Shown piece after piece: positions 1,601 to 29,617 of a stretch of 30,000 bases of DNA. A model generated the notes under the pieces. That model ran no database searches and was not told where the DNA came from. It saw only the letters and a list, made by a program, of their open reading frames with translations. Origin of the DNA: Serratia sp. (in: enterobacteria) (GTDB taxonomy: Bacteria; Pseudomonadota; Gammaproteobacteria; Enterobacterales; Enterobacteriaceae); the NCBI RefSeq assembly GCF_051654945.1, contig NZ_JBOFZA010000076.1, forward strand, positions 19,279 to 49,278, given 5' to 3'. Position 1 is the stretch's first letter. The number at the start of each line of letters is the position of its first letter. The position numbers and the translations under genes were made by a program.

Positions 1601-1769
1601 AATAATAACCCTTTAAGATAGTTCTATTAATCAAGAAATATATTTGCGATATCAGGCAGCATAAATAACGTTATTATTTATCCGTCATATTCCCGCAAAA
1701 CTTGATAAGGATATTAGAACAGGCCTCATAACGAAGATATAAGAGCTATTGGTAAATACTGTAGGCGCA

Positions 1770-1786
1770 GGACTACACCTGTAGGA
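1770..1786. promoter_or_regulatory. Candidate EvgA-type operator, GGACTACACCTGTAGGA, about 170 bp upstream of gadB
   Basis: Identical at 16 of 17 positions to 6290-6306 in the evgA/emrK divergent region. The core is a CTACA-N2-TGTAG dyad. An extra CTGTAGG half-site sits at 1759-1765. Confidence 0.4.
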
Positions 1787-1821
1787 TGAGATAAACAGGC
1801 GTAGCATGGTTTTGGAGATGA

Positions 1822-5418: not shown

Positions 5419-5422
5419 GCGC

Positions 5423-6055
5423 TCACCCAATTTTATTACGGTTGGCAAAGGCAAACAGGTCTGCCAACGAGCTACAACCGAGCTTCTCCATTAAACGGCT
5501 TTTATAGGTACTGACCGTTTTATTGCTGATAAACATCGCCGCCGCGATCTGCATATTATCCGCACCGCCAAGGATGGCGCGCATCACCTTGATCTCCTGG
5601 CTGGAGAGCGAAGCCAACATTTCCTGTTCCGAAGAAAGGCTGCCGACGAAACCGTTCAGTGAGAAAGGAAAATAGCTGTAGCCATTTTGGGCGGCATGCA
5701 CCGCAGCAATGATATTGGTCATGCCCTCTTTTTTACTGATAAAGGCATTGGCCCCGGCATCTGCACTGCGCTTGCCGTAGAACAGATCGTTTTTGGCTGA
5801 GACTACGATAATAATTTGGCTGAACTGCTGCTTTCTGAGCTTTTCAACCACCTCAATGCCGCTCATGATGGGAATATCCACGTCGACAATCACTACGTCC
5901 GGCTGCTGCTGCGCTACCTGTAACAGCGCTTCGGCCCCGTCCCCCGCCTCGCCAATAACCTCAATCCCTTCACTTTCCAGCAGGTTCCTGATCGCCATAC
6001 GGGCCAGAGGATGATCGTCAACAATTACAGCACTCAAAAATTTGGCTTCACCCAT
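5423..6055 (-). CDS. evgA: Response regulator, NarL/LuxR-type HTH output (210 aa)
   Basis: Receiver domain (VIVDDHPLARMAIRNLL..., DVVIVDVDIP) plus a C-terminal LuxR-type HTH (LSSQEIKVMRAILGGADNMQIAAAMFISNKTVSTYKSRLMEKLG). It lies immediately upstream of evgS and divergent from the emrK-type gene, as in E. coli. Confidence 0.9.
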   Translation of the reverse strand: MGEAKFLSAVIVDDHPLARMAIRNLLESEGIEVIGEAGDGAEALLQVAQQQPDVVIVDVDIPIMSGIEVVEKLRKQQFSQIIIVVSAKNDLFYGKRSADAGANAFISKKEGMTNIIAAVHAAQNGYSYFPFSLNGFVGSLSSEQEMLASLSSQEIKVMRAILGGADNMQIAAAMFISNKTVSTYKSRLMEKLGCSSLADLFAFANRNKIG

Positions 6056-6289
6056 GGTTGTTTCCTGGTCATATAAAAAATACGGACAGTGTTGGGCAGC
6101 GATGTTGCTTCGCTCGCTCTCTATCTTAAGGATATCAAGCTATCTACGAGCTTATAGCATAACCGTGTTTATTGTTCTAATTCACAGAACTTCCTTCCCC
6201 CTTACTCTCCAAAGTGTGGGGCTTTCCCTGCAGTTGTCAGATAGGGACGTCAGTTTCCGGCGCGCCACTGGCAGACCTGGTTTAGCAAG

Positions 6290-6306
6290 GGACTACACGT
6301 GTAGGA
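6290..6306. promoter_or_regulatory. Candidate EvgA-type operator, GGACTACACGTGTAGGA, in the evgA/emrK divergent region
   Basis: Contains the perfect 12-bp palindrome CTACACGTGTAG. It is a near-identical copy of 1770-1786. The right half, TGTAGGA, fits the TGTARGAA half-site I recall for E. coli EvgA. Confidence 0.45.
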
Positions 6307-6524
6307 GGCGGCCTGCAACAACTTCCGATGTCTCTGCTGTGTTACGGCCAGGCCCTGCATTATCATTATTACGAACTTTCAGCATTGCTGCTCGCCGATC
6401 CGGACGTTTCAAGCTGAAAATGATGACCAAGCCATTCTATTAATCAATTACGCTCTGCGCTTATTGCCACTGGCAGCGTGATGGCTTGCTATTGCTCCTA
6501 AACAGACCAGCAAGGGTTTTGCCA

Positions 6525-7694
6525 ATGCCACAATTACCCCCCTCAGACAGTAACCAGGTGAAAACACCCTTAGAAAAAAGAAAGCATTGGCTGATCGTTT
6601 TTCTAGTGGTGATTGTTATTACAGCCATGGCCAGTGCCGCCTGGTGGTATTTCAATTCGCGCAATGTGCAAAGCACCGACGATGCCTATGTCATGGGCAA
6701 TCAGGTCGCGATTTCTTCGCAGGTGAATGGCAGCGTGGTCAGCGTGAATTACACCAATACCGATTTAGTCCACCAAGGGGATGTGTTGGTCAATTTAGAT
6801 GATACCGATGCCAACCTCAGCTTTAAAAAAGCCAAAAATAATCTGGCGGAAACGGTGAGAAAAACCAAGCAGATCTATATCGCCGACGAACAATATAGCG
6901 CCAATATTGCCCAGGCTAAAATCGCGTACCAACAGGCACAGGCCGATTTTAAACGTCGCACCCAGCTGATGGGCGCGGGGGCTTTTTCAAAAGAAGATCT
7001 GCAACATGCGCGCAATGCCGTTAGCAGCAGCAAGGCAGCGCTGGACGTCGCCATTCAGGAATATCGCGGTAATCGTGTTCTGATCCAGAACTCCACGCTT
7101 GAACAGCAGCCGGCAATCCTGTTGGCAGTAGAACAACTGCGTGAAGCCTGGCTGGCGCTACAACGTACCAAAATTCGCAGCCCGGTGACCGGCTATGTCG
7201 CGCAGCGCAATGTGCAGGTCGGTGAAACGCTGAGTGCAGGCCAGGCCTTATTATCTATCGTCCCCGCCGATCAGCTGTGGATTGACGCCAACTTCAAGGA
7301 AACCCAGCTCAGTGGTGTCCGCATTGGGCAGAAGGTGAGCGTGGTGAGCGATCTGTATGGCAGTGATGTGGTCTTCGACGGCGTGATTGAAGGGATCAAT
7401 ATGGGCACCGGCGGCGCGTTTTCAGTACTACCCGCGCAGAATGCCACCGGCAACTGGATCAAAGTGGTACAACGCCTTCCGGTGCGTATCACCCTGGATG
7501 CCGAGCAAGTCAAAGCGTACCCGCTGCGGATTGGCTTATCCACCACGGTGACCCTGCGCGAAAACAACACCAACGGGCCTGCGCTGTCTACCACCCAACG
7601 CCAGACTCCGGCTTACCAAAGCCAGGCGCTGGTGCTCGATACCGCGATTATCGACGGGGAAATCCTCAGCATCATCAAAGCCAATGCGATGTGA
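6525..7694 (+). CDS. emrK: HlyD-family membrane fusion protein of an EmrAB/EmrKY-type efflux pump (389 aa from the ATG at 6525)
   Basis: Colinear by eye with E. coli EmrK/EmrA (STDDAYV.GN, LDDTDA...KAKNNLA, IRSPVTGY.AQR.VQVGE, NFKETQL..VRIGQ, GINMGTG.AFS.LPAQNATGNWIK.VQR.PV). The ORF-track start at 6486 is a TTG. The ATG at 6525 has AAGGG about 8 nt upstream and gives the E. coli-like length. Confidence 0.85.
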   Translation: MPQLPPSDSNQVKTPLEKRKHWLIVFLVVIVITAMASAAWWYFNSRNVQSTDDAYVMGNQVAISSQVNGSVVSVNYTNTDLVHQGDVLVNLDDTDANLSFKKAKNNLAETVRKTKQIYIADEQYSANIAQAKIAYQQAQADFKRRTQLMGAGAFSKEDLQHARNAVSSSKAALDVAIQEYRGNRVLIQNSTLEQQPAILLAVEQLREAWLALQRTKIRSPVTGYVAQRNVQVGETLSAGQALLSIVPADQLWIDANFKETQLSGVRIGQKVSVVSDLYGSDVVFDGVIEGINMGTGGAFSVLPAQNATGNWIKVVQRLPVRITLDAEQVKAYPLRIGLSTTVTLRENNTNGPALSTTQRQTPAYQSQALVLDTAIIDGEILSIIKANAM

Positions 7695-7697
7695 TCT

Positions 7698-9233
7698 ATG
7701 AGCAACAACCGCGCACTGCTGCCGCTCAAAGGCTGGTCATTGATCCTGGTGACGCTCTCGCTATCGATGGCGACCTTTATGCAGATGTTGGACTCCACCA
7801 TTTCCAATGTCGCGATCCCAACCATTTCCGGCTTCCTGGGTGCCTCGACGGACGAAGGAACCTGGGTGATCACCTCGTTTGGCGTCGCCAATGCGATCGC
7901 CATCCCGATGACCGGGCGTCTGGCACAACGCTTCGGCGAGTGCCGGCTGTTTTTAGCTTCGGTGGCATTGTTTGCCCTGGCGTCGCTGTGCTGCGGGCTC
8001 TCCACCAATCTCGATATGCTGATCTTTTTCCGCGTCATTCAAGGATTGGTTGCAGGCCCGCTGATCCCGCTCTCGCAAAGTCTGTTGCTGCGTAACTACC
8101 CGCCGGAGAAGCGTAATATCGCGTTGGCGCTCTGGTCAATGACGGTGATTATCGCCCCGATATTTGGCCCGATTATTGGCGGCTATATTTGCGATAACTA
8201 TGACTGGGGCTGGATATTTTTAATCAACGTGCCGTTCGGCATCGTGGTGGTTGCCATTACCGCGTGGAAGCTGAAAGGAAGAGAAACGCCTACCGAGCCG
8301 GTGAAAATCAATCTGTTTGCATTAAGCCTGCTGGTGCTCGGTGTAGGTTGCCTGCAAATCATGTTGGATAAGGGCAAAGACCTCGACTGGTTTAACTCCA
8401 CCACCGTGATTGTGCTGGCCGTGATTGCCGTGGTGGCGCTGATTTTGCTGATTATCTGGGAAGCCACCGACGATAATCCGATCATCGATCTGAGCCTGTT
8501 CCGTTCGCGTAACTTCAGCATCGGCATCCTGTGCATCAGTTGCGCGTATCTGATTTATGCCGGAGCGATTGTGTTGATGCCGCAGCTGCTACAGATTGTC
8601 TTTGGCTACACCTCGGTGTGGGCGGGTCTGGCCTATGCCCCCATCGGGCTGATGCCACTGCTGATCGCCCCATTGATTGGCCGCTACGGCGATCGTGTCG
8701 ATATGCGGGTGCTGGTGACCTTCAGCTTTATCGTGTATGCCGGTTGCTACTACTGGCGAGCGATGACGTTTAACCCGGCGATTGGCTTTAGTGCCGTGGT
8801 GCTGCCGCAGTTGATGCAAGGCTTCGCCGTGGCCTGCTTCTTCCTGCCGCTGACCACCATTTCGTTGTCAGGACTGGCACCAGAAAAATTTGCCGCAGCC
8901 ACCAGCTTAAGCAACTTTTTCCGTACGTTATCTGGCTCGATCGGCACGTCACTCACCATGACTTTGTGGAGCCACCGGGAGTCGTTTCACCATGCGCAGT
9001 TGACGCAGTCGGTGACGCAATTCAACCCGGCCGCGATCAAGCTGGATCGGGAGTTGCAACATCTGGGGTTCGATCAACAACAAGCAGCGACCTATATCAA
9101 CGATCAGATTACCCAGCAGAGCCTGCTGATGTCGGCCAATGATATTTTCTATCTCTCAGCGGGGGTGTTCCTGATGCTGACCCTGCTGGTATGGTTCGCC
9201 AAGCCGCCGTTTAATACGGCCAAGGCGGGTTGA
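7698..9233 (+). CDS. emrY: MFS (DHA2, 14-TMS) multidrug efflux permease of the EmrB/EmrY type (511 aa)
   Basis: The ATG lies 3 nt after the emrK stop. The hydrophobic translation is EmrB-like (MATFMQMLDSTISNVAIPTISG.LG, ...GRLAQRFGE...). The length matches EmrB/EmrY (512 aa). Confidence 0.88.
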   Translation: MSNNRALLPLKGWSLILVTLSLSMATFMQMLDSTISNVAIPTISGFLGASTDEGTWVITSFGVANAIAIPMTGRLAQRFGECRLFLASVALFALASLCCGLSTNLDMLIFFRVIQGLVAGPLIPLSQSLLLRNYPPEKRNIALALWSMTVIIAPIFGPIIGGYICDNYDWGWIFLINVPFGIVVVAITAWKLKGRETPTEPVKINLFALSLLVLGVGCLQIMLDKGKDLDWFNSTTVIVLAVIAVVALILLIIWEATDDNPIIDLSLFRSRNFSIGILCISCAYLIYAGAIVLMPQLLQIVFGYTSVWAGLAYAPIGLMPLLIAPLIGRYGDRVDMRVLVTFSFIVYAGCYYWRAMTFNPAIGFSAVVLPQLMQGFAVACFFLPLTTISLSGLAPEKFAAATSLSNFFRTLSGSIGTSLTMTLWSHRESFHHAQLTQSVTQFNPAAIKLDRELQHLGFDQQQAATYINDQITQQSLLMSANDIFYLSAGVFLMLTLLVWFAKPPFNTAKAG

Positions 9234-9274: not shown

Positions 9275-9694
9275 TTACTTAATCCGCTTACCGAGCTCAT
9301 CCACGATCTTTTCGCCATCCTCTTTTGCCAATGCCCCCATTTGCGGATTGGGCAAGATATCCAGTACCACCTCAGACGGGCGACATAGACGAGTCCCCAG
9401 CGGCGTCACCACGATTGGGCGATTAATCAGGATCGGATGCTGCAACATAAAATCGATCAGCTGCGGGTCACTGAACCGCTCCTCTGCTAGCCCCAACTGC
9501 TCGTAAGGTTCCACATTTTTGCGCAGTAAGGCCCGGACGCTTATCCCCATATCGGCGATAAGCTTCATCAGTTCGTCGCGGCTTGGCGGTGTCTCAAGGT
9601 AATAGACGATCGTTGGCTCGGTGCCGCTGTTGCGGATGAATTCCAGCGTATTACGCGAGGTGCCGCAGGCCGGGTTATGGTAAATGGTGATCAT
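9275..9694 (-). CDS. arsC: Arsenate reductase, glutaredoxin-coupled type (139 aa)
   Basis: ITIYHNPACGTSRNTLE.IRNSGTEPTI..YLE.PPSRDEL.KLIADMGISVRALLRKNVEPYEQLGLAE... is near-identical by eye to E. coli ArsC, including the catalytic Cys in HNPACGTSRN. Confidence 0.95.
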   Translation of the reverse strand: MITIYHNPACGTSRNTLEFIRNSGTEPTIVYYLETPPSRDELMKLIADMGISVRALLRKNVEPYEQLGLAEERFSDPQLIDFMLQHPILINRPIVVTPLGTRLCRPSEVVLDILPNPQMGALAKEDGEKIVDELGKRIK

Positions 9695-9706
9695 GGGTGT
9701 TCCCCG

Positions 9707-10996
9707 CTACATAGTGATTGATAGGCGTAACGCCAAAGCCGTCAGTGTGACCAACAGCACTGGCAGAGTCATAATGATCCCGGTGCGGAAGTAGTAGCCC
9801 CAGGTAATACTCATGTTCTTTTGCGCTAACACATGCAACCAGAGCAAGGTCGCCAGGCTGCCAATTGGCGTGATTTTTGGCCCCAGATCGCAGCCAATGA
9901 TATTGGCGTAAATCATGGCTTCCTTAACCACTCCCGACGCGGTACTGCCCTCTATGGACAGCGCACCAATCAGCACCGTGGGCATATTGTTCATTATGGA
10001 TGACAGGAACGCAGTCAGGAAGCCGGTACCGAGCGTGGCAGACCACAAACCGTTATCTGCCAGCAGGTTCAGCACGCCGGAGAGGTATTCCGTCAGCCCA
10101 GCGTTGCGCAGGCCATAGACCACCAGATACATCCCCAGCGAGAAAATCACGATCTGCCAAGGTGCGCCGCGCAGCACCTTCCCGGTGTCAATAGCATGAC
10201 CCCTTTTGGCCACCGTAAACAGGATCACCGCCCCTACCGCAGCAATAGCGCTAACCGGAATGCCGAGCGGCTCCAGCACAAAGAAACCAACCAACAGCAG
10301 GATTAATACCACCCAGCCAGTTTTGAACGTGGCCGGATCCTTAATGGCTTTCACCGGCTGTTTCAGTCGTGCAAGATCATAGGTTGGCGGAATATCTTTG
10401 CGAAAGAACAGATGCAGCATGACCAGCGTGGCGACGATCGCAGCAATATCGACTGGGACCATCACCGAGGCGTATTGCGTAAACCCCAAATTAAAGAAGT
10501 CTGCCGAGACAATATTAACCAGATTGGACACAATCAGCGGCAAGCTGGCGGTATCGGCAATAAACCCGGCAGCCATAACAAACGCCAGCGTAGTGCCTTT
10601 GCTGAACCCCAGCGCCAGCAGCATGGCGATCACGATAGGGGTCAGGATCAGCGCCGCGCCATCGTTGGCGAACAAGGCTGCCACAGCCGCGCCGAGTAAT
10701 ACGATATAGGTGAACAGCAGGCGTCCTCGTCCGTTACCCCAGCGGGAGACATGCAGTGCCGCCCATTCGAAAAAACCGGATTCATCGAGCAACAAACTGA
10801 TGATAATCACGGCAATGAAGGTCGCCGTGGCATTCCAGACAATATGCCAAACCACCGGGATATCGGCGATCTGCACCACTCCGGTGATCAAGGCCAGCCC
10901 CGCGCCGAGTACGGCGCTCCACCCAATCCCCAATCCTTTGGGCTGCCAGATCACCAGCACAATGGTCAGAATAAATATCGCCCCAGCCAACAGCAT
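9707..10996 (-). CDS. arsB: Arsenite efflux permease (429 aa from the ATG at 10996)
   Basis: [31 protein letters not shown]... matches the E. coli ArsB N-terminus and length. GAGGGA lies 8 nt upstream of the ATG at 10996. The ORF-track start at 11011 is a TTG inside the operator-like motif. Confidence 0.93.
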
Positions 10997-20044: not shown

Positions 20045-20929
20045 TTACCCCAGTAAATACTCTTGTTCCGCCAAGCTGTTGTTGAATTGCTTACGATAAT
20101 CACTTGGGGAGCAACCCACATGGCGCATAAATAACTTGGCAAAATGATCGACGTTTTCGTACCCTACCCGCCAGGCAATCTCATTAAGGCTGTTATCGGT
20201 ATTAGTCAGTGTAAATTTGGCCTCGGTAATGCGGCGCTGAATAACGTAGTTAATCGGCGAGATATGATATTCCCTGGCAAACTCATGACAGATATAACTG
20301 ACGCTGGCGCGGAACTTTTTTGCTAATTGTTCAAGCGTGATCTTTTCATGATAGTTATTATTCAAATAGACCAACACATCTTTCACCAGCACGTCTTTTT
20401 TAATGTACCCCAGCTCCGAACGATAAGCGTTTTTAAAGTTCTCATAAAAAAGCGCAGTTAAGGTATAACCATAGGCATCATAAATTGATGAGGTCAGCTC
20501 ATTTTTCTGCTGGGGTAATCTCACGCCCAACTCATGGAAAATGGTTTTTATCACCTCGACACCTTGCCCGACGGAAACCACCGGACAGGAGTGAGGCTGC
20601 AAAACCTGATTCTCTTCCCAGCCCGGAAACTTGAAGCCATGGATGGCACAGGTATAGGTAGTGGCCGGGGAGGCGCTGTCCGAAGCCACCGCGTGCAGGC
20701 GGCCGGGCTCAATAACCACGATATCACCGGCATGTGCCACATAGTAAGAGGAGTCGATGACCAGTCTGGCGACACCCTTTTTAACGTAAATCAGCTCACT
20801 TTCATTATGATGCACATGGTGCCCAGACTCCCAGTTAGGATCGTCACTGATGACAAACCGCGAGAGTTTTGGCGTCATTCCCTGCTCAAAAAGGGCGTCT
20901 TTTTTATTATCGAAACAGCGCTGAAACAT
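20045..20929 (-). CDS. ydiP: AraC/XylS-family transcriptional regulator with an N-terminal cupin domain (294 aa from the ATG at 20929)
   Basis: C-terminal dual HTH (ITLEQLAKKFRASVSYICHEFAREY..SPINYVIQRRITEAKF.L..T..SL.EIAWRVGYENVDHFAKLFMRHVGCSPSDYRK). GGAGG lies 5 nt upstream of the ATG at 20929. The ORF-track start at 20941 is a GTG that contains that SD. Confidence 0.85.
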   Translation of the reverse strand: MFQRCFDNKKDALFEQGMTPKLSRFVISDDPNWESGHHVHHNESELIYVKKGVARLVIDSSYYVAHAGDIVVIEPGRLHAVASDSASPATTYTCAIHGFKFPGWEENQVLQPHSCPVVSVGQGVEVIKTIFHELGVRLPQQKNELTSSIYDAYGYTLTALFYENFKNAYRSELGYIKKDVLVKDVLVYLNNNYHEKITLEQLAKKFRASVSYICHEFAREYHISPINYVIQRRITEAKFTLTNTDNSLNEIAWRVGYENVDHFAKLFMRHVGCSPSDYRKQFNNSLAEQEYLLG

Positions 20930-21292
20930 GGCAACCTCCACACAAAACAGTTGGCTTTGGCAAAATGATCAGTGGCTAAAATAGAGCGACAGAAAACAAT
21001 ATACAATATGCCCTCAGGGGACTAAAACAAGATAGTTTGCCCAGCATGCAAGATGGCACGAAAATAAAGTCACTACGCTCGCGCCGTCGGCTTACCCTCG
21101 CTCACTGGCAGACCTTTTTCCCGCAAAACAATCCATCCGTTATTAGCGGTTTTTTTGCAAGATTGTTGGCAACGAAAACAGATTATCCAGTCGTAAATCC
21201 TCCTGCGCACTCGCAATATATTGTCATGCTTTTTTGTTCTTTCCGCTGACATAACGCTCTCTGCCGCCAGCGAGCGACCAACAGGAGATGCC

Positions 21293-22057
21293 ATGAAAAT
21301 AATAACCTGCTTTAAGCTGGTCCCCGAAGAGCAAGATATTGTGGTTACCGCACAACGTACGCTCAACTTCGATCACGCCGAAGCCAAAATCAGCCAGTTC
21401 GATTTGAATGCGATTGAGGCGGCGACCCAGTTGGCAACCGAGAACGATCAGATTACCGCGCTCAGCGTGGGCGGCTCGCTGCTGCAAAACTCCAAGGTGC
21501 GTAAAGACGTGCTGTCACGCGGCCCTCACGAACTTTATCTGGTTCAGGATGCGCAGTTGGAAAACGCGCTGCCGATGGATACCGCGCACGCGCTGGCCGC
21601 CGCCGCAGATAAGATCGGCTTTGACCTGATGCTGTTTGGCGAAGGTTCCGGGGATTTATACGCTCAGCAGGTGGGCCTGCTGGTCGGGGAGATCCTGCAA
21701 CTCCCTACCGTGAACGCCGTCAGCAATATTCAATTTGCCGGTGACCATGTGCTGGTTGAGCGCACGCTTGAAGAAGAAGTTGAGGTCCTTGAACTGCCAC
21801 TTCCTGCGGTTATCTGCGTAACCTCAGACATTAACGTTCCCCGTATACCATCGATGAAAGCGATCCTCGGCGCCGGGAAAAAACCGGTCAATCAATGGCA
21901 GGCCAATGATATTGCCTGGAGCCAGACGCCGCCGTTAGCCGAACTCATTGAGATCACCGTACCGCCGCAGAAACAACGCCAACGCATCATTCTGGAAAAC
22001 GACTCGCCGGAAGCCATTAGCGAATTGGCAGACCATCTGAAAAAAGCGCTGAACTAA
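21293..22057 (+). CDS. ydiQ: Electron transfer flavoprotein, beta-subunit-like (254 aa)
   Basis: MKIITCFKLVPEEQDIVV... has the same length as E. coli YdiQ. AGGAG lies 6 nt upstream of the ATG at 21293. The ORF-track start at 21221 adds 24 unsupported codons. Confidence 0.9.
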   Translation: MKIITCFKLVPEEQDIVVTAQRTLNFDHAEAKISQFDLNAIEAATQLATENDQITALSVGGSLLQNSKVRKDVLSRGPHELYLVQDAQLENALPMDTAHALAAAADKIGFDLMLFGEGSGDLYAQQVGLLVGEILQLPTVNAVSNIQFAGDHVLVERTLEEEVEVLELPLPAVICVTSDINVPRIPSMKAILGAGKKPVNQWQANDIAWSQTPPLAELIEITVPPQKQRQRIILENDSPEAISELADHLKKALN

Positions 22058-22079
22058 CCCACGACTGGAGAAAATCATC

Positions 22080-23030
22080 ATGAGTAAACTGACAAACGTA
22101 TGGGTGTTCAGCGATAACGTTGAGCGCTACGGCGAACTGATGACCGGTGCACGCCAGTGGGGCGAACACGTCTACGCTATCGTGCAGGACAACGAACAGG
22201 TTGCCAGGCTCAAGTCTCTGGGCGCAGACGGCATCTACGTGCTGGAGAAAACCGCCGCCCTGCAACGTATCGAGAACTATGCCGAAACCCTGGCCGCCAT
22301 CCTGAAAGAGGTGAACGGTGAACAAACTCCGGCCTTGGTGCTAATGGCAGCGACCAAGCGCGCTAAAGCACTGACCGCGCGCCTTGGCGTGCTGCTGAAC
22401 GCAGCGGTGGTGAACGATGTGACTGCCGTACACGTCGATGGGGCTGACTTTATCGCCGAACACCGCATGTACGGCGGGCTGGCCTTCGGTAAAGAGAAAA
22501 TCAATACCGCCACCGCCATCATCACCCTGGCTCCCGGCGTGATGGAGCCTGCCGCCGCCGACCCGGCGCATGACTGCCTGGTGACTCAGCTCAGCTACGT
22601 TGCTCCGCGCCAGGAAATTCTCTGCAAAGAGCGCCGTACCAAAGCGTTGAGTAGCGTCGACCTCAGCAAGGCCAAACGCGTGGTCGGTGTGGGACGCGGG
22701 CTGGCGGCGCAGGACGATCTGAAAATGGTTCATGATCTGGCTGCCTTACTCGGAGCGGAAGTTGGCTGTTCTCGTCCTATCGCCGAGGGCGAAAACTGGA
22801 TGGAACGTGAGCGCTATATCGGTGTATCCGGCGTGCAGCTGAAATCCGATCTTTACCTGATGTTGGGCATTTCCGGGCAGATCCAGCATATGGTCGGCGG
22901 CAACGGCGCCAAGATCATTATCGCGGTGAATAAGGACAAGAATGCCCCGATCTTCAACTATGCCGATTACGGCCTGGTGGGCGACATTTATAAAGTGGTC
23001 CCAGCCCTGATCGACCAGTTAGGACGTTAA
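22080..23030 (+). CDS. ydiR: Electron transfer flavoprotein, alpha-subunit-like (316 aa)
   Basis: EtfA/FixB-like C-terminal FAD-binding region (GVSGQIQHMVG...II.AVNKD.NAPIF..ADYG.VGD). GGAG RBS. Gene order matches E. coli. Confidence 0.9.
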   Translation: MSKLTNVWVFSDNVERYGELMTGARQWGEHVYAIVQDNEQVARLKSLGADGIYVLEKTAALQRIENYAETLAAILKEVNGEQTPALVLMAATKRAKALTARLGVLLNAAVVNDVTAVHVDGADFIAEHRMYGGLAFGKEKINTATAIITLAPGVMEPAAADPAHDCLVTQLSYVAPRQEILCKERRTKALSSVDLSKAKRVVGVGRGLAAQDDLKMVHDLAALLGAEVGCSRPIAEGENWMERERYIGVSGVQLKSDLYLMLGISGQIQHMVGGNGAKIIIAVNKDKNAPIFNYADYGLVGDIYKVVPALIDQLGR

Positions 23031-23090
23031 CCCTTTGATTCACCGCACGCATCTCGCTGCATATCGGCGGCGAGATAGGGAGCATAAAGC

Positions 23091-24380
23091 ATGTCGGATG
23101 ATAAATTTGATGCCATCGTGGTCGGCGCTGGCGTTGCAGGCGCCGTAGCCAGCTACGTGATGGCGCAGGCCGGGTTGGATGTACTGGTCATCGAACGTGG
23201 CAACAGCGCGGGCAGTAAGAATATGACCGGGGGGCGTCTGTATGCCCATAGCCTGGAAAGCATCATGCCCGGGTTCGCGCAGGAAGCGCCGGTAGAGCGC
23301 AAAGTCACCCGCGAGAAGATCTCATTTATGACGGAGAAAAGCGCCGTCACGCTCGATTTTCATAGCGAGAAACCGGACGTTGCCGCCCAGGCGTCTTATA
23401 CCGTGCTGCGCAATCGCTTCGATCCCTGGTTGATGGAGAAAGCCGAACAGGCCGGAGCGCAGTTGATCTCGGGTGTTCGGGTTGATGGACTGATACGTGA
23501 AGGTAATCAGGTCACTGGCGTGCAGGCGGGCGAGGATATCCTGAAGGCCGATGTGGTGATCCTGGCCGACGGCGTGAACTCCATGCTTGGCCGCTCGATT
23601 AACCTGGTGCCACCGTCATCGCCACATCACTATGCCGTCGGCGTCAAAGAGCTGATCGGCTTGTCCCCTGCGGTGATCGAAGACCGTTTTAATCTTTCGG
23701 GCAATGACGGTGCCGCCTGGCTGTTCGCCGGTTCCCCGTCTAACGGCCTGATGGGGGGCGGATTTCTCTACACCAATCGGGACTCTATCTCCCTCGGGCT
23801 GGTATGCGGCCTGGGGGAAATTGGCCATGCGGGGAAAAGCGTGCCCCAGATGCTTGAAGACTTTAAGCAACACCCTTCCATTCGCCCGCTGATCCAGGGC
23901 GGCAAGCTGCTGGAATACGGCGCACATCTGGTTCCTGAGGGCGGCAAGGCGATGGTGCCAACGCTGGCCGACGGCGGCGTGATGATCGTCGGCGATGCGG
24001 CAGGATTTTGCCTGAACCTGGGCTTTACCATCCGCGGCATGGATCTCGCCATTGCATCTGCCCAGGCCGCCGCCAAAACGGCCATCGCGGCCAGGCAGCG
24101 GCAGAACTTTTCCGCCAGCAGTCTGGGGGAATATAAGCACGCGCTGGAGCAGAACTGCGTGATGCATGAGCTGCACCACTTCCGCAAAATCCCGGCGCTG
24201 ATGGAAAACCCACGCCTGTTTACACAATATCCGCGCATGGTCGCGGACATCATGGCTGATATGTTCATCATCGATGGCCGCCCCACTCAGCCGATGCGCA
24301 AGTCCCTGATGAAAAGGGTGAAACAGATTGGCTTGATGAATTTAGTGAAAGACGGCATCAAAGGGGCGACAGCGCTATGA
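23091..24380 (+). CDS. ydiS: FixC-like FAD-dependent oxidoreductase (ETF-quinone oxidoreductase family), 429 aa
   Basis: N-terminal dinucleotide-binding motif FDAIVVGAGVAGAVA, then FixC-like sequence throughout. Gene order matches E. coli. Confidence 0.9.
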   Translation: MSDDKFDAIVVGAGVAGAVASYVMAQAGLDVLVIERGNSAGSKNMTGGRLYAHSLESIMPGFAQEAPVERKVTREKISFMTEKSAVTLDFHSEKPDVAAQASYTVLRNRFDPWLMEKAEQAGAQLISGVRVDGLIREGNQVTGVQAGEDILKADVVILADGVNSMLGRSINLVPPSSPHHYAVGVKELIGLSPAVIEDRFNLSGNDGAAWLFAGSPSNGLMGGGFLYTNRDSISLGLVCGLGEIGHAGKSVPQMLEDFKQHPSIRPLIQGGKLLEYGAHLVPEGGKAMVPTLADGGVMIVGDAAGFCLNLGFTIRGMDLAIASAQAAAKTAIAARQRQNFSASSLGEYKHALEQNCVMHELHHFRKIPALMENPRLFTQYPRMVADIMADMFIIDGRPTQPMRKSLMKRVKQIGLMNLVKDGIKGATAL

Positions 24381-24670
24381 GCAGCGAAAATCCGGTCAAC
24401 GTAGACGTCAAGCTGGGCATCAACAAGTTTCATGTTAATGAGGGCCATCCGCACATCATTCTGGTGGATAACCCCGATATGGGGGAGTTCCGCAAGCTGG
24501 TGCTGGCCTGCCCTGCCGGGCTGTATAAACAAGACAGCGCGGGCAATATCCATTTCGATTCCGCCGGCTGTCTGGAGTGTGGCACCTGCCGCGTGCTGTG
24601 CGGCGATACCATTCTGGAGCAGTGGGAATATCCTCTGGGGACGTTTGGCGTCGAGTTCCGCTACGGGTGA
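24377..24670 (+). CDS. ydiT: FixX-like ferredoxin (97 aa)
   Basis: ATGA start/stop overlap with ydiS. Cys-rich motif C.ECGTCRV.C. Confidence 0.9.
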   Translation: MSSENPVNVDVKLGINKFHVNEGHPHIILVDNPDMGEFRKLVLACPAGLYKQDSAGNIHFDSAGCLECGTCRVLCGDTILEQWEYPLGTFGVEFRYG

Positions 24671-24673
24671 TCG

Positions 24674-24849
24674 CCCCTCACCCCAGCCCTCTCCCACAGG
24701 GAGAGGGAGCTGGTACGGTGATAGAGGCAGTTACTGCGATCTACCTGCAGTCCTCCGTAAAACGACTCGGTAGCCCAGGTCGATTTCGGCAACCCATAGC
24801 AAACTCGATCGGTCCCCTCTCCCTTTGGGAGAGGGTTAGGGTGAGGGGC
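24674..24849. repeat. BoxC/REP-like hairpin-ended element, copy 3 (176 bp, MITE-like)
   Basis: The left end is CCCCTCACCCCAGCCCTCTCCCACAGGGAGAGGGAGC. The right end is GATCGGTCCCCTCTCCCTTTGGGAGAGGGTTAGGGTGAGGGG, in inverted orientation. It fills the ydiT-fadK spacer. Confidence 0.85.
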
Positions 24850-24909
24850 AATTTTCACCGGACCAGAACATTTCAACATCCCCCAGAAATAATGAATAGA
24901 GATAAACCA

Positions 24910-26550
24910 ATGAGTGTCACGATAAAACTCGATCCTGAACGCCGGGCCAAATACCGCCAGCAAGGCTTCTGGGGCGATGCCTCCCTGGCCGATTACTGGC
25001 ATCAAACCAGGCAGGCCATGCCGGAAAAGATTGCCGTGATCGACAATCGGGGAACCTCCTACACCTATGCTGCCCTCGATCACGCGGCAAGTTGCCTGGC
25101 TGCGTGGTTAATTTCCCGTGGTATACAACCGGGCGACCGCGTCGCCTTTCAGCTCCCCGGCTGGTGCGAATTTACCGTGATCTACCTGGCCTGCCTGAAA
25201 GCCGGTGCCGTTTCCGTTCCGCTGCTCCCCTCTTGGCGAGAGTCAGAGCTGGTCTGGGTGCTGAACAAATGCCAGGCCAAGGTGCTGTTCGCACCGACCT
25301 CATTCAGGAATAGCCGCCCGATCGACCTTATTTTACCGCTGCGCGATCAACTGCCGGGTCTGCTGGAGGTCATTGCCGTCGATAAACTGTCGCCCGCCAC
25401 CAATACGTTGGCCCTTAGCCAGTTGCTGCGCGACACTCCACCGCTAACCACTCCGGTCAGCACGCAGGGCGATGAACTGGCCGCCGTGCTGTTCACCTCC
25501 GGTACCGAGGGCAAACCCAAAGGCGTGATGCTGACGCACAACAATATCCTGGCCAGCGAGCGTGCCTACTGCGCACGGCTCAATCTGACCTGGCTCGATA
25601 CCTTCCTGATGCCTGCTCCCTTGGGGCATGCCACCGGTTTTTTGCACGGCGTGACGGCCCCCTTTCTGATTGGCGCACGCAGCGTACTGCTGGATATATT
25701 TAATCCACTTGATTGCCTTGCCCTGCTGCAACAAGAGCGCTGTACTTGCGTGCTCGGAGCAACCCCCTTTGTCTATGATCTGTTATGCACCCTGCAACAG
25801 CAGCCGCACGACATTTCATCGCTGCGCTTCTTCCTGTGCGGTGGCACCACCATCCCGAAAAAAATTGCCCGGGATTGCCTGCAAATGGGCATCAAACTGC
25901 TCAGCGTTTATGGCTCGACGGAAAGCTCGCCCCACGCGGTGGTCAACCTGGACGATCCCCTTTCCCGCGTGCTCAACAGCGACGGTTTTGCCGCACCTGG
26001 GGTAGAGATCAAAGTGGTGGATGAAAATCGTGACCAACTCCCCAACGGCGAAGAAGGCGAAGAAGCCTCGCGTGGCCCCAACGTATTTATGGGCTATCTG
26101 GATGAACCCGAGCTGAGCGCCCGTGCGCTGGATGAGGATGGCTGGTATTACAGCGGCGATCTGTGCCGGATGGATGCTGATGGCTATATCAAAATTACCG
26201 GGCGCAAAAAGGATATTATCGTGCGCGGTGGCGAGAATATCAGCAGCCGCGAAGTGGAAGATATTCTGATGCAACACCCGCGCATCCATGATGCCGCAAT
26301 TGTCGCCATGCCGGATGAGCGATTAGGGGAAAGATCCTGCGCCTACGTGGTGCTTAAGGCCGCATACGGCTCACTCACCCTAAAGGAGATCATTGCTTTC
26401 TTTGGCCGCAAACGGGTCGCCAAATACAAATACCCCGAACACCTGGTGGTGGTGGACAGCCTGCCGCGTAATGCCTCGGGCAAGATACAAAAATTCCTGT
26501 TACGCCAGGATATCATCCAGCGTCTCGGTGAAGAGGTGCTGTCTCATTGA
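24910..26550 (+). CDS. fadK: Short/medium-chain acyl-CoA synthetase (546 aa from the ATG at 24910)
   Basis: ...YRQQGFWGDASLADYWHQT...; AMP-binding motif LFTSGTEGKPKGVMLTHNN; ...GEEASRGPNVFMGY..., ITGRKKDIIVRGGENISSREVE, and a C-terminal SGKIQKFLLR. Colinear with E. coli FadK (YdiD). An alternative in-frame ATG lies at 24892. The 657-aa ORF-track version reads through the repeat element and is rejected. Confidence 0.88.
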   Translation: MSVTIKLDPERRAKYRQQGFWGDASLADYWHQTRQAMPEKIAVIDNRGTSYTYAALDHAASCLAAWLISRGIQPGDRVAFQLPGWCEFTVIYLACLKAGAVSVPLLPSWRESELVWVLNKCQAKVLFAPTSFRNSRPIDLILPLRDQLPGLLEVIAVDKLSPATNTLALSQLLRDTPPLTTPVSTQGDELAAVLFTSGTEGKPKGVMLTHNNILASERAYCARLNLTWLDTFLMPAPLGHATGFLHGVTAPFLIGARSVLLDIFNPLDCLALLQQERCTCVLGATPFVYDLLCTLQQQPHDISSLRFFLCGGTTIPKKIARDCLQMGIKLLSVYGSTESSPHAVVNLDDPLSRVLNSDGFAAPGVEIKVVDENRDQLPNGEEGEEASRGPNVFMGYLDEPELSARALDEDGWYYSGDLCRMDADGYIKITGRKKDIIVRGGENISSREVEDILMQHPRIHDAAIVAMPDERLGERSCAYVVLKAAYGSLTLKEIIAFFGRKRVAKYKYPEHLVVVDSLPRNASGKIQKFLLRQDIIQRLGEEVLSH

Positions 26551-26597: not shown

Positions 26598-27188
26598 TTA
26601 CTTTTTAGCGGGTTCGGCATGTATTTCTAGCAAATCGGTATAGGTCACCACCACGCTCTGATTCACCTTCAGATCTTTCAGGCGAGCCTGGATCGCAGGA
26701 TCTTCAACGGCAATGACTTTCTGACGCCCCGCAGGCCCTTCAAAGGTCACCTGGTGCTTGTTAAGATCAATATGCGTGATCTTCAAGGTCACATTGACCT
26801 GATGTATCGCGTTGACGTTGGGATTAGGGTTGTTCTTGGTCGCGTTGCTTTCTTCTTTATAGCTGGTGATCGTCGGGGCCGCCTTACTCAGATCGGTATC
26901 AAGCTTAACAATACGTGAGCGAACCACCGTGGCCTGGATCGTATCCCCCGCCTTTAGGTTGGTTAAATCCTTTTCCTGATCGGTCAGTTTAAAACTGACG
27001 TTATGCCCTTCTGCACCAGCCAAAACCACGACGCGGTTTTGTTGGTCGACCGAGACCACTTTCGCGGCGAACTGATCCGTTTGCACCTCACCAGCCAAAG
27101 GAACAATGTCTGCGTAAGCTGAAGTGATGCTGATGGCAAGAAGGGAAAATGCAGTGGAGGCTTTAATCAACGAACGGATAACTTTCAT
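26598..27188 (-). CDS. Secreted/periplasmic protein of unknown function with an internal two-fold duplication (196 aa)
   Basis: Sec-type signal peptide MKVIRSLIKASTAFSLLAISITSAYA/DI. Two similar beta-rich modules: (a) VVSVDQQNRVVVLAGAEGHNVSFKL....LTNLKAGDTIQATV; (b) ITHIDLNKHQVTFEGPAGRQKVIAV....LKDLKVNQSVVVTY. AAGGA RBS. I cannot name the family. Confidence 0.75.
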   Translation of the reverse strand: MKVIRSLIKASTAFSLLAISITSAYADIVPLAGEVQTDQFAAKVVSVDQQNRVVVLAGAEGHNVSFKLTDQEKDLTNLKAGDTIQATVVRSRIVKLDTDLSKAAPTITSYKEESNATKNNPNPNVNAIHQVNVTLKITHIDLNKHQVTFEGPAGRQKVIAVEDPAIQARLKDLKVNQSVVVTYTDLLEIHAEPAKK

Positions 27189-27377: not shown

Positions 27378-27440
27378 CATTAGTCACAAAGCCGGTAACG
27401 GCAAATAAAATTGATAGGTTCCGACAGGAAGAATGAAAGG

Positions 27441-27513
27441 CTCTGGCAACAGGGCTCGAACCTGTGTCCAGTCGGTCCGAGAGCCGACTGCTCTACCACT
27501 GAGCTATACCAGA
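27441..27513 (-). tRNA. tRNA-like gene with a canonical body but an 8-nt anticodon loop (CUCUCGGA). No encoded CCA. Isotype undetermined; the 3' half of the loop is Arg-like.
   Basis: Manual fold of the minus strand:
- Acceptor stem TCTGGTA/TGCCAGA (7 bp, one G-U)
- U8 A9
- D stem GCTC/GAGC, loop AGTGGTA
- A26
- Anticodon stem GTCGG/CCGAC, loop CTCTCGGA (8 nt)
- Variable loop TGGAC
- T stem ACAGG/CCTGT, loop TTCGAGC
- Discriminator G, followed by CCT
Conserved U8, A14, G18G19, A21, T54-T55-C56 and A58 are all present. Confidence 0.7.
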
Positions 27514-27522
27514 GTTAGGGCT

Positions 27523-27550
27523 ATTATCTACAGCCTGCCAGCACGGTCAA
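27523..27550 (-). promoter_or_regulatory. Near-consensus sigma70 promoter for the tRNA-like gene
   Basis: The minus strand has TTGACC (plus 27545-27550), a 16-nt spacer, then GATAAT (plus 27523-27528). The -10 element ends 9 nt before tRNA position 1. The -35 hexamer overlaps the TGA stop (27547-27549) of the upstream 442-aa ORF. Confidence 0.6.
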
Positions 27551-28875
27551 GCAGGCTGACTGCCTTTACCGGAAAAATAGCCTGCCTTGCGGAGTATCAG
27601 GGCGATCTCGGGCCGCGCCACCACCACGCCATGAACCAGCTCCGGCGTTGGGACAAACGGCACCGCCTGCCGATTGTGACGTGGGCTGATCCAGCCCTTT
27701 TTATAAGGATCGACAGCAAACTGCGCACAGATCCGCTGCACATCGGCTTTGGTACAGCTTGCTGCGCCCGAAAACACCTCCCACGGAAACGGCAGATGCG
27801 CCCACACCTGCGTGTCCGGCTCCGGGCCACCGCCCGCCTGATAGTGCCAGGCAGCAACGTCCCCAGCCATCAGGCGTAGCACTTTGCCCAGGCACATCTG
27901 TTCAACCATCTGCTCCATACCCAGCACTTCGGCTAGCGCAAGCCACCCTTGTCTGGCACTGTTCCAGGCTCCGGCCAAGGCATTCCAGGTGGAGGAGTCA
28001 TCACCACGTTTTACAACCATAGTGCGGCGATTGAACGTATTACGTTCCCAGATCAGCTTCAGTAAACCGGCCAACTCATTGAGCTGCGCCAGATAGTGCG
28101 TAAACAGGCTCAGCTTTTGCCGATCGTCGAGATGCTGGACGATCTCACGGTCCGGCATGATATGGGCAATGGCATACCACCCCGCCGATGTTGGCTGCTG
28201 CTGTACCCGAGCCAGCAGCATCTCGGCAATCTGGTCAAAGGCTCGATCCTGCGCCTGGTTGGTAAATACGCTGCGGCGGTTCATACGAGCGGAAAGCCAG
28301 GCAATAAAACAGGCAACATCTGGCGTGGAGGAAAAATCCTCATAGCGGATCAGAGTCGTCAGCCCGGATTTTGCCACCCGGGATGCCTGATACTTTTGCG
28401 TTTCCAACTGGTACGTCGCGAGTTTGCTCTCAAAGCGCTGCAAAAAGCGGAACAGCTTGTTATAGCGCCTTTTGGAGATCTCCATTCCCGCCTGCTGCCG
28501 CTCTGCGCGGCTCAAACGATCGGCGATAAAATGATTACTGCCCGGTATTTTCTGGATCTCCGCTGACAGTTGCTCAATCAACTGCCTGACCTGCTCAATA
28601 TCGCTGCAATCAACGGCGTCCAGCGCTGGCGCACAGACAAACAGCTCCCGCGCTTTCGCCACCTGTTTTTGTGGGGCTATGGGTTGCTGGAAATCCTGCA
28701 TCATCGAGGTCATCTGAACCAGCCCCGACTTCAGCGAACGAGCCGACGCCTGGCGCAATGGGGCTGCTTCAGCCACAGTCAGGGAATCTCCCAACTGCGT
28801 GAGGATCAATTCAGCCACATCTTCCGGGCGCAACCGGGTTTGCAGGGAGGAGAACAGCCGGGCAAGGTTATCCAT
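27547..28875 (-). CDS. Hypothetical protein, 442 aa, no family recognised
   Basis: Long uninterrupted ORF with ordinary-looking composition. Predicted soluble: no signal peptide or TM segment is visible. I see no catalytic motif. ATG at 28875 with only a weak SD. The opposite-strand ORFs here are short. Confidence 0.7.
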   Translation of the reverse strand: MDNLARLFSSLQTRLRPEDVAELILTQLGDSLTVAEAAPLRQASARSLKSGLVQMTSMMQDFQQPIAPQKQVAKARELFVCAPALDAVDCSDIEQVRQLIEQLSAEIQKIPGSNHFIADRLSRAERQQAGMEISKRRYNKLFRFLQRFESKLATYQLETQKYQASRVAKSGLTTLIRYEDFSSTPDVACFIAWLSARMNRRSVFTNQAQDRAFDQIAEMLLARVQQQPTSAGWYAIAHIMPDREIVQHLDDRQKLSLFTHYLAQLNELAGLLKLIWERNTFNRRTMVVKRGDDSSTWNALAGAWNSARQGWLALAEVLGMEQMVEQMCLGKVLRLMAGDVAAWHYQAGGGPEPDTQVWAHLPFPWEVFSGAASCTKADVQRICAQFAVDPYKKGWISPRHNRQAVPFVPTPELVHGVVVARPEIALILRKAGYFSGKGSQPA

Positions 28876-29038
28876 CAGGGCTAATCCATTAAAAGGTTAA
28901 AGTCTTATAAGGTCGGCTGACGCGGGTATCAGCCAGTGCATCAAGCAAATGACATACCGTTGACTATATTGATAGAGGTCAATTGATCAACCAGTTTAAT
29001 GGTGAAACGCTCCCCTCTGCCAAGTTAAACTCATCGCA

Positions 29039-29617
29039 ATGGCCCTGCGCTATTCCTACCTGCGTTCACCGTGGAGCAAGAAATTGTTTAAATGCCTGAT
29101 AAACCGGCTAACGCTGGTCGCTGTTCTCGCCCTGCCCGCCATGGCCCATGCGGCCCCTGACGTACAGGTGGGATTTTCGCCGGAAGGCTCGGCACGGGAA
29201 CTGGTGCTGAAGGTCATTGGCAGCGCACATAAATCCATCCAGATGATTGGCTATTCCTTCCAGGCGCCAGATATCACTCAGGCGCTGGTAGCGGCACATC
29301 AGCGGGGGGTGGATGTGCGCGTAGTGGTCGATAAACGCCGCAATCAGGGCAAGGTCAGCCAGGCGGCGATTAACTATGCGGCGACTCACGGCGTACAGAT
29401 GCGTATTGACGGGCATTATCATATCCAGCACGACAAAACGATTATCGTCGATGGCCAGACGGTAGAAACCGGCTCGTTTAACTATGCTCCCTCGGCAGAG
29501 ACGCAAAACAGTGAAAACGTGGTAGTTCTACGCCATATGCCCGACGTTGCCAGGCAGTTCATCATGCACTGGCAAAGCCGCTGGGATTTGGGCATTCCTT
29601 ACCCAGTGACGCTTTAG
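29039..29617 (+). CDS. nuc: Nuc-like periplasmic endonuclease, phospholipase D superfamily with a single HKD motif (192 aa; 177 aa if it starts at TTG 29084)
   Basis: Single HxK(x)4D motif followed by GSxN (HDKTIIVDGQTVETGSFN). Signal peptide ...LTLVAVLALPAMAHA/AP. GGAG (29073-29076) lies 7 nt before the in-frame TTG at 29084, while the ATG at 29039 has no SD, so the start is uncertain. Confidence 0.8.
   Translation: MALRYSYLRSPWSKKLFKCLINRLTLVAVLALPAMAHAAPDVQVGFSPEGSARELVLKVIGSAHKSIQMIGYSFQAPDITQALVAAHQRGVDVRVVVDKRRNQGKVSQAAINYAATHGVQMRIDGHYHIQHDKTIIVDGQTVETGSFNYAPSAETQNSENVVVLRHMPDVARQFIMHWQSRWDLGIPYPVTL

Follow-up and report, generated by a model that had tools for sequence, protein, structure and literature searches.

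The 30,000-nucleotide stretch of a Serratia sp. contig that was analysed here (the window) carries on its minus strand a tRNA-like RNA gene (27441..27514) downstream of an open reading frame (ORF) for a 442-amino-acid (aa) protein, WP_438690339.1 (27547..28875), and these two genes and the system that they represent are our subject. Positions 1-73 of the RNA correspond to 27513..27441, with C(-1) at 27514 standing opposite G73. ARAGORN finds a single gene in the whole window, at 27439-27513 (minus strand), which it calls 'tRNA-???' with anticodon (ctcg), that is, with the 8-nt loop CUCUCGGA. The Rfam tRNA model RF00005 aligns to 27441-27513 (minus strand) over model positions 1-71 of 71, with 57.9 bits (E 3e-10), far above its gathering score of 29 bits, and no other Rfam family rises above threshold anywhere in the 30 kb. 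The textbook cloverleaf with an 8-nt anticodon loop, proposed by an earlier inspection of the letters (the sequence-only reading), is thus borne out by both programs. The 5' half reads UCUGGUA UA GCUC AGUGGUA GAGC A GUCGG, followed by the loop CUCUCGGA, and the 3' half reads CCGAC UGGAC ACAGG UUCGAGC CCUGU UGCCAGA G, followed by CCU. The four stems, the 5-nt variable loop, U1:A72, G73, the conserved elbow (G18G19, T54-Psi55-C56, A58) and the CCU in place of CCA are all as they had been described. The RNA shares with a canonical elongator tRNA the cloverleaf and its conserved elbow; it departs from it in the loop, which has 8 nt instead of 7 with the anticodon directly after U33, and at the ends, where one would expect an acceptor stem of 7 bp, an unpaired discriminator and a CCA (encoded in Enterobacterales). 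The minimum free energy fold is the cloverleaf plus a C(-1):G73 pair, so that the acceptor stem probably has 8 bp; the base G73 had been read correctly, but it is probably no free discriminator, as the C at 27514 would pair with it. In the loop, an invariant C-U-C on the 5' side (27481..27483, minus strand), flanked by the invariant pairs G30:C40 and G31:C39, is followed by a variable cassette, U-CGGA (27476..27480, minus strand), with the hypervariable part formed by its final four bases (27476-27479).

A putative sigma-70-like promoter, TTGACC-16-GATAAT (27523..27550, minus strand; 10 of 12 positions in a consensus scan), precedes the RNA, and its -35 hexamer overlaps the TGA stop codon (27549-27547) of the 442-aa ORF. 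The site, claimed by the sequence-only reading as the RNA's own promoter, is kept in all the Serratia relatives though the surrounding region diverges by 12% overall, which suggests that it drives the tRNA-like RNA. The predicted transcription start in Serratia would lie merely 2-3 nt upstream of RNA position 1. Because Serratia sp. 2723 (L004) shares with the window, in a different genomic context, only the stretch 27432..28900 (minus strand) of this region, the limits of the minimal module were set there, from 25 nt upstream of the ATG to about 9 nt past the tRNA-like gene.

The first clue that this pair extends beyond Serratia was a DNA similarity, over the tRNA and the 3' end of the ORF, to a Hymenobacter plasmid, on which two odd tRNA-like genes, with the loops CUCUAC and CUCUGGUA, come after the homologous gene. 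A genome scan with one genome per species yielded 248 loci, and the 80 of them that were examined span Pseudomonadota, Myxococcota, Bacteroidota, Planctomycetota, Cyanobacteriota, Chloroflexota, Acidobacteriota, Verrucomicrobiota, Gemmatimonadota, Armatimonadota and others. At 79 of the 80, ARAGORN finds one to three tRNA-like genes (1-3) lying 20-250 nt downstream of the protein gene on the same strand, and at the 80th the tRNA-like gene was recovered by covariance model; among the 18 viral loci (IMG/VR), 16-17 also have one. The linkage holds when the search starts from the RNA side. A DNA pattern of loop and body matched nine viral contigs, eight of which encode the protein (and were already known through it), the ninth being an ordinary tRNA-Met, and a pattern for the 8-nt loop matched 50 metagenome loci, 43 of which encode the protein beside the RNA. 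The seven others comprise one remnant, two loci near a contig end, two short tRNA-array contigs and two unexplained cases. The co-occurrence of the RNA with the 442-aa gene, proposed earlier as a check, is therefore found in both directions across phyla, and the idea of an enterobacterial peculiarity gives way to a module present in about 12 phyla and on phage-like contigs. We conclude that the tRNA-like gene is the RNA part of a self-contained, horizontally spread two-gene module, made of a protein of about 440-480 aa and one to three tRNA-like RNAs. The reciprocal genomic linkage further suggests a physical or functional interaction between protein and RNA.

As for the loci that lack an intact partner, one (L159, 3319-3568) has a tRNA-like gene with only a 45-aa remnant of the protein gene (E 8e-6), and two others (L167, 1443-1517; L173, 1230-1303) have tRNA-like genes of the family with no partner gene found nearby; this suggests decaying loci or trans-acting copies.

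On chromosomes the module is single copy and scattered among unrelated housekeeping genes. Plasmid occurrences are one Hymenobacter plasmid, five large Streptomyces plasmids and one Miltoncostaea plasmid; on Streptomyces pTFSG1 the family RNA lies 78 nt after the gene and has the loop CUCUGAUC. The locus tags RS22695 and RS22700 (Hymenobacter) and RS34270 (Streptomyces) are missing beside the plasmid genes in RefSeq, and these gaps suggest that pipelines annotate the family RNAs as tRNA genes. Many of the 18 IMG/VR loci are on contigs of 100-430 kb, on which the gene stands within large tRNA arrays with the odd tRNA on either side of it, in the vicinity of two radical-SAM enzymes, a DnaG-type primase, MazG/cytidylyltransferase and endonuclease-I-like genes. 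On one 330-kb phage-like contig (L085), the module is flanked by two radical-SAM genes (6780-7811 and 9607-10347) and preceded by 21 ordinary tRNA genes (534-7953), some of which share the anticodons of the odd tRNAs (Arg-CCU, Gln-UUG, Gln-CUG). Complete E. coli genomes gave no match to the module. Across taxa the two genes have no further conserved neighbour, and when 150 ORFs around 40 loci were scanned with PADLOC and Pfam, most proved to be housekeeping genes, with defence genes merely sporadic and integrases absent.

The partner protein, taken by the sequence-only reading for the product of an orphan ORF, has at least 1391 homologues in a word-indexed search and falls into 570 clusters at 50% identity in an exhaustive profile search, nearly all of 430-500 aa, from about 12 bacterial phyla as well as from large plasmids and from megaphage-like contigs. 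Identity between phyla is 45-60%, with 48 invariant columns; the window ORF, 46-93% identical to members across phyla, belongs to the family, whose motifs are RPEDVA, RRYNKLFR, GDDSSTWN, GKVxRLMAxDV and TPELVHG. It has no recognised domain: no significant match was obtained in Pfam, NCBIfam, PADLOC (where the only hit was a chance-level one to LmuB, E 0.03) or PHROGs, and no domain fusion was seen among the 150 best-scoring representatives listed of the 570 clusters. The AlphaFold2 model (pLDDT 92.5, pTM 0.90) is almost wholly alpha-helical, so that the GDD motif as part of a polymerase palm was rejected, the model being all-alpha. No counterpart was found in the PDB by sequence profile, and the best Foldseek match had E 0.8; neither a TROVE domain (Pfam), nor Ro structures (Foldseek), nor an aminoacyl-tRNA synthetase (aaRS)- or elongation factor (EF)-like fold was matched. 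Judged from the model, the protein is a novel fold. In BFVD, two uncharacterised proteins of Klosneuvirinae giant viruses matched structurally (E 3e-15 and 4e-14, TM 0.67-0.68), namely A0A3G4ZSE3 (Edafosvirus) and A0A5K0U9D9 (Yasminevirus), which are of 550-580 aa and 18-19% identical to the partner. Klosneuvirinae are known for their large tRNA and translation gene sets.

An alignment of 130 distinct family RNAs (A4) gives the anatomy of the RNA. Its body approximates UAGCUCAG-UGGUAGAGC-nnnCGG-[loop]-CCGnnn-UGGAC-RCAGGUUCGAGCCCUGY. All four stems covary: 99.4% of the cells are in standard pairs and 15 of the 21 pairs have changed on both sides, a covariation reached by none of 500 shuffles, and shifting the partner by 1-3 columns brings pairing to 31-46%. 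Together with the complete lack of substitutions in the body within Serratia (below), these compensatory changes uphold the claim that this is a maintained tRNA body and not a pseudogene or an attachment-site (att) fragment. A covariance model of the family (R1) gives the window RNA 91.2 bits, family members 65-94 and ordinary tRNAs (from one plasmid array and phage arrays) at most 64, the best among the latter being tRNA-Lys(CUU), tRNA-Met and tRNA-Gln(CUG). The plasmid in question is the 582-kb conjugative pM7012 of Burkholderia sp. M701 (L002), which carries 37 tRNA genes for nearly all amino acids at 3250-7725; its tRNA-Lys(CUU), with 63.4 bits, is the ordinary tRNA closest to the family body.

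Positions -1 and 73 are paired in 100 of the 130 RNAs, with all four Watson-Crick types represented, whereas -2:74 pairing is at chance level, which points to an acceptor stem of 8 bp in the family as a whole. Such an 8+5 geometry is that of tRNA-His or tRNA-Sec and implies an unusual 5' processing. Position 73 shows no conservation, and only 7 of the 130 genes encode a CCA. The loop always opens with CUC (CAC in three members) on the invariant pairs G30:C40 and G31:C39, the GG-CUC...CC columns being invariant or nearly so among the 130 distinct RNAs, and the CUC is followed by 3-6 hypervariable bases, for a total loop length of 6, 7, 8 or 9 nt in 4, 56, 100 and 9 members, respectively (169 in all).

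How sharply this variation is confined can be read from the five Serratia lineages in which the module is retained, in most cases at one and the same chromosomal site. Divergence amounts to 12.7% of sites in their ORFs and to 12.1% in their promoter spacers; in the 69-nt RNA body none of 690 compared sites differs, and in the last four loop bases 28 of 40 do. These four bases are CGGA in the window, TAGA in L101 (93% protein identity), GGGA in L003, CCTT in L004 and CCAT in S. fonticola, ten assemblies of which, with an identical protein, all carry the loop CTCTCCAT. The ten identical assemblies rule out a rapid phase variation of the loop, which is thus stable within a lineage and no assembly error. 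The 8-nt architecture is present in 17 independent Serratia-type assemblies; an ordinary 7-nt tRNA-Arg, which the sequence-only reading had suggested looking for at the homologous loci, was seen at none of them, the relatives carrying other 8-nt loops instead. A cis target complementary to the loop was found neither in the module nor in its 5' region. The RNA is under extreme purifying selection, except for a cassette of 3-6 nt that is under diversifying selection.

The cassettes resemble the anticodon loops of real tRNAs. We took natural loops from tRNAs of the same phage arrays and of one Burkholderia plasmid: CUUUGGA for Gln-UUG, CUCUGGA for Gln-CUG, UUUGGGA for Pro-UGG, CUUUCAC for Glu-UUC, CUUUUAA for Lys-UUU, CUCUUAA for Lys-CUU, CUGUUAA for Asn, CUACGGA for Arg-ACG and CUCAUAA for Met. 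The commonest family loops are CUC+UUCAC, CUC+UUGGA, CUCUGGA, CUCUUAA, CUC+UUUAA, CUC+UGGGA and CUC+GUUAA, and each of them equals CUC followed by the natural positions 34-38. When the copied anticodon starts with C, the result is the natural 7-nt loop itself; with U or G in first place, the invariant C remains as an extra base between U33 and N34, and the loop has 8 nt. The window loop is CUC+UCGGA, whose cassette is of the Arg(UCG) type and has G37 and A38. The link to tRNA-Arg drawn by the sequence-only reading is partly right, as UCGGA resembles positions 34-38 of an Arg(UCG/ACG)-type loop. Positions 34-37 of 19 of the 35 distinct 8-nt alleles occur among the 91 natural tRNAs of a small reference set, for an expectation of 5.4 matches and a maximum of 14 in 2000 random draws, while the alternative register gives only 2. 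In 80% of occurrences a purine stands at position 37, and the cassettes follow the natural G36-G37 and U36-A37 rules, with exceptions in about one third of the alleles. Among 165 readable loops, Glu (34), Gln (30) and Lys (29) types together make up 93, followed by Pro (15) and Arg (11), with Ala, Ser and Leu types rare. Cassettes also shuffle between the two body subtypes, as two loci (L026 and L043) hold the same pair swapped.

The reading that we put forward, tentatively and with a confidence well short of even, is that the module makes a mimic of an anticodon loop, bound to the protein and resistant to cleavage, that serves in conflicts over tRNA. The protein would grip the invariant body and the CUC handle, at the GG-CUC junction, and display the cassette as a mimic of the anticodon loop of one particular tRNA. 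Recognition of that junction would be the reason why the C is retained even when the anticodon starts with U or G, and the retained C in turn the reason for the 8-nt loop. The ribonucleoprotein might then engage whatever reads the loop of the mimicked tRNA. PrrC-type anticodon nucleases cut tRNA-Lys at U33|N34, and Lys, Glu and Gln tRNAs, which bear a wobble thiouridine, are the classical targets of wobble-dependent anticodon nucleases. As the fixed or extra C falls on this very cut site of wobble-directed anticodon nucleases, the RNA could be an uncleavable substrate look-alike, a decoy or antidote in tRNA-cleavage conflicts that neutralises foreign tRNases; alternatively, in a toxin-antitoxin fashion, it might restrain a tRNA-directed activity of the partner protein itself. 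In either case the exchange of a cassette would retarget the system. Both tRNA cleavage as an immune strategy and the escape of phage tRNAs through loop changes are documented (PMC10264068, PMC11464382). The scatter of the module among chromosomal housekeeping genes resembles that of small toxin-antitoxin-like cassettes, and the antidote half of a toxin-antidote pair may be envisaged because it fits a distribution that is scattered and free of mobility genes. Among the functions suggested by the sequence-only reading, a tRNA mimic or ligand of the neighbouring protein is thus the one that fits best, in view of the two-way linkage, and the quadruplet or +1 decoder has been weakened.

Several observations weigh against a conflict-related mimic. 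Neither by motif nor by fold does the protein match a nuclease, a ligase or a transferase, and its conservation (45-60% across phyla, 48 invariant residues) is unusual for a conflict gene; no hypervariable patch that would track the loop was found in it. The neighbourhoods (150 ORFs, 40 loci) are not defence islands, and the module was not found among cultured phages (INPHARED). Around one third of the alleles have a pyrimidine at position 37 or no natural match in the small reference set, and the G36-G37/U36-A37 covariation would also be expected from ribosomal decoding or from tRNA-modifying enzymes.

This last point leads to the reading, unlikely in our view but a serious competitor, that the RNA is a dedicated recoding tRNA, which would enter the ribosome and read the codon set by its cassette, and for whose constant body the partner would act as a maturation, charging or delivery factor. 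The 8-nt loops would then give +1 frameshifting or quadruplet decoding (CGAG/CGAN for the window RNA) and the 7-nt C34 loops single-codon mistranslation. Insertions 5' of the anticodon are proven +1 frameshifters, as in SufJ (C31.5) and in engineered stem-loops (33.5) (PMC4238358), the 'extended anticodon' rules are kept (G36-G37, U36-A37, purine 37 in 80%), every elbow nucleotide of a tRNA is conserved, and tRNA-ProX/ProRSx offers a precedent for a constant body with swapped anticodons beside a dedicated protein (PMC10404621). A decoder, however, fits poorly with the coexistence of 6-, 7-, 8- and 9-nt loops in one family and with a pyrimidine at position 37 in about one third of the alleles; nor could host synthetases consistently charge about 18 'isotypes' on one body, in which position 73 is unconserved and paired with -1 and CCA is encoded in merely 7 of 130 members. 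Moreover, the partner has no aaRS- or EF-like fold, the partner ORFs hold no frameshift or in-frame stop that would need suppression, and the phage arrays already have ordinary tRNAs with the same anticodons. A suppressor of the suf class would be a native isoacceptor with a single inserted base, but no 7-nt parent exists at the orthologous loci and the window RNA body belongs to a cross-phylum family instead. The bolder version of this idea, a natural orthogonal decoding system in which an enzyme without an aaRS fold services one universal tRNA body, with plug-in cassettes as 2-5-base anticodons led by a fixed C for programmed codon or quadruplet reading (CGAG here), we regard as still less probable, indeed a long shot.

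Nor do we give much credit, though slightly more than to orthogonal decoding, to a tRNA platform outside the ribosome, either an aminoacyl carrier with a transferase as partner, whose cassette would let a chosen synthetase charge the RNA while the extra C keeps it off the ribosome, or a scaffold for RNA repair or quality control like that of Ro60/Rsr. The synthetases for Glu, Gln, Lys, Pro, Arg, Thr, Asn, Asp and Gly rely on the anticodon. The isotypes that the family mimics most often are these nine, with Ala, Ser and Leu rare, which would suit a carrier, and a platform would also account for the obligate pairing of protein and RNA; in jumbo phages, Ro/TROVE proteins that serve RNA repair come with tRNA-like partners (PMC7824862), and the all-alpha architecture of the model would be compatible with an RNA-wrapping solenoid. 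Yet TROVE, transferase and ATP-binding signatures were not found in the partner, the unconserved acceptor end and the paired position 73 argue against regular aminoacylation, and neither repair enzymes (RtcB, Pnkp, Hen1) nor biosynthetic genes are conserved nearby. Finally, the expanded loop, the lack of an encoded CCA and the location in an accessory gene pair might at first sight suggest an artefact or decay, that is, a 1-nt assembly insertion, a recent pseudogene of tRNA-Arg or the att remnant of an integrated element. This is almost certainly wrong, since the identical 8-nt architecture occurs in 17 independent assemblies and at hundreds of loci in many phyla, with no substitution in the body against 12.7% in the ORF and with strong covariation. 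An assembly error or a pseudogene is refuted by the covariation, the 17 assemblies and the invariant body, and the remnant or end of a mobile element was rejected in view of the single copy per genome and of the lack of an integrase or a transposase among the neighbours, of direct-repeat boundaries and of any conserved neighbour.

Each of the nearest known systems shares a trait with the module and fails one of its defining features. The +1 frameshift suppressors (SufJ C31.5, sufD, SufB2 and the engineered 33.5 quadruplet decoders) likewise have a canonical body, an 8-nt loop and an extra base 5' of the anticodon, with positions 34-38 natural (PMC4238358). They are, however, laboratory mutants of native tRNAs, whereas the module is an ancient conserved family with its own protein and its own putative promoter, with loops of 6-9 nt, a paired and unconserved discriminator and about 18 anticodon types on one body. 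In Streptomyces and Kitasatospora, tRNA-ProX/ProRSx likewise places a dedicated protein gene beside a tRNA of constant body and exchanged anticodon (PMC10404621), but in that system the partner can be recognised as a prolyl-tRNA synthetase, the loops have 7 nt and the distribution is confined to two genera; the module has expanded or contracted loops, occurs in about 12 phyla and on phage-like contigs, and its partner has no known fold and is no adjacent aminoacyl-tRNA synthetase paralogue (no Pfam, NCBIfam or PDB match). The bacterial and phage pairs of Ro60/Rsr with YrlA also join an alpha-helical RNA-binding protein to the gene of a tRNA-mimic RNA (PMC7824862); the module has neither a TROVE nor a vWA domain and no linkage to rtcBA, and YrlA is only partly tRNA-like, whereas the module RNA is a complete cloverleaf that scores as a tRNA.

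The phage tRNAs that escape anticodon nucleases (T5 tRNA-Lys against PARIS, and others) come close in their loop-focused diversification, in the prominence of Lys, Glu and Gln, in their location in phage tRNA arrays and in having loops unlike those of the host (PMC10264068, PMC11464382). They are nevertheless functional, chargeable tRNAs with 7-nt loops and no partner protein, in contrast with the fixed CUC, the variable loop length and the ever-present conserved protein of the module, which moreover resides mostly on bacterial chromosomes. Type III toxin-antitoxin systems (e.g. ToxIN) are likewise compact pairs of a protein and a structured RNA, sometimes in tandem, scattered over chromosomes, plasmids and phages without mobility genes. 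The module, however, has neither an endoRNase of the ToxN/AbiQ/CptN type, its partner showing no ToxN/AbiQ-type similarity, nor a tandem-repeat RNA antitoxin; its RNA is a tRNA mimic and not a pseudoknot repeat, and lies downstream of the protein gene with a putative promoter of its own. Full-text searches, in a literature to which our access was incomplete, returned no description of the module, and neither the protein family nor a dedicated RNA family is present in Rfam, Pfam, NCBIfam, PADLOC or PHROGs as searched. The module thus appears to be new in kind.

The tRNA has recently been recognised as a main battlefield of the conflict between phages and bacteria. If the mimic reading holds, the module would bring a new principle to it, a tRNA look-alike held by a protein, whose specificity is rewritten by exchanging 3-6 bases, and it would give a role to a family of novel fold that extends from Serratia to Streptomyces, to megaphage-like tRNA arrays and, by fold, to giant viruses. 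Were orthogonal decoding true instead, it would be used by bacteria, megaphages and possibly giant viruses, as the first natural family of decoders of variable codon size with a dedicated protein of its own. Whatever the mechanism, an RNA that keeps its body and swaps its loop offers a natural scaffold on which to build programmable tRNA tools, and the module is a test case for the behaviour of 8-nt anticodon loops in nature; it would also account for a class of tRNA genes that are flagged as "undetermined" by annotation pipelines in many phyla.

In the window, the module is bordered on one side by a divergent gene (29039-29617, plus strand) for a 192-aa nuclease of the PLD family (PLDc_2, E 1e-25; Nuc/NucT, DISARM DrmC-like) with an apparent N-terminal signal sequence. 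This nuclease was considered as a part of the module and set aside, as its synteny with the module is specific to Serratia, where it is kept in most of the relatives but is absent beside the module of Serratia sp. 2723. On the other side, between the tRNA-like and caiC-like genes, lies a gene (26598-27188, minus strand) whose 196-aa product matches no family and begins with a signal-peptide-like N-terminus; the gene is present in the window, in L003 and in L102-L112, but is replaced by about 46 bp in S. fonticola GTA-SR07 and RP0009 (L005, L006). Further downstream, the intergenic region that separates the fixX-like from the caiC-like gene holds a 38-nt palindromic repeat in two inverted copies (ATCGCCCCTCACCCCAGCCCTCTCCC...GGGAGAGGG; 24670-24707 and 24815-24852), which are 89% complementary, lie 107 nt apart and create spurious long ORFs; the repeat looks like an enterobacterial repetitive extragenic element. 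The region 20045-26550 holds an AraC-type regulator ORF, fixA/B/C/X-like electron-transfer flavoprotein genes and an AMP-binding (caiC-like) ligase gene, and, judged from the ORF translations and from an AMP-binding match on an orthologue of the ligase, it is probably a carnitine-type cluster directly downstream of the module.

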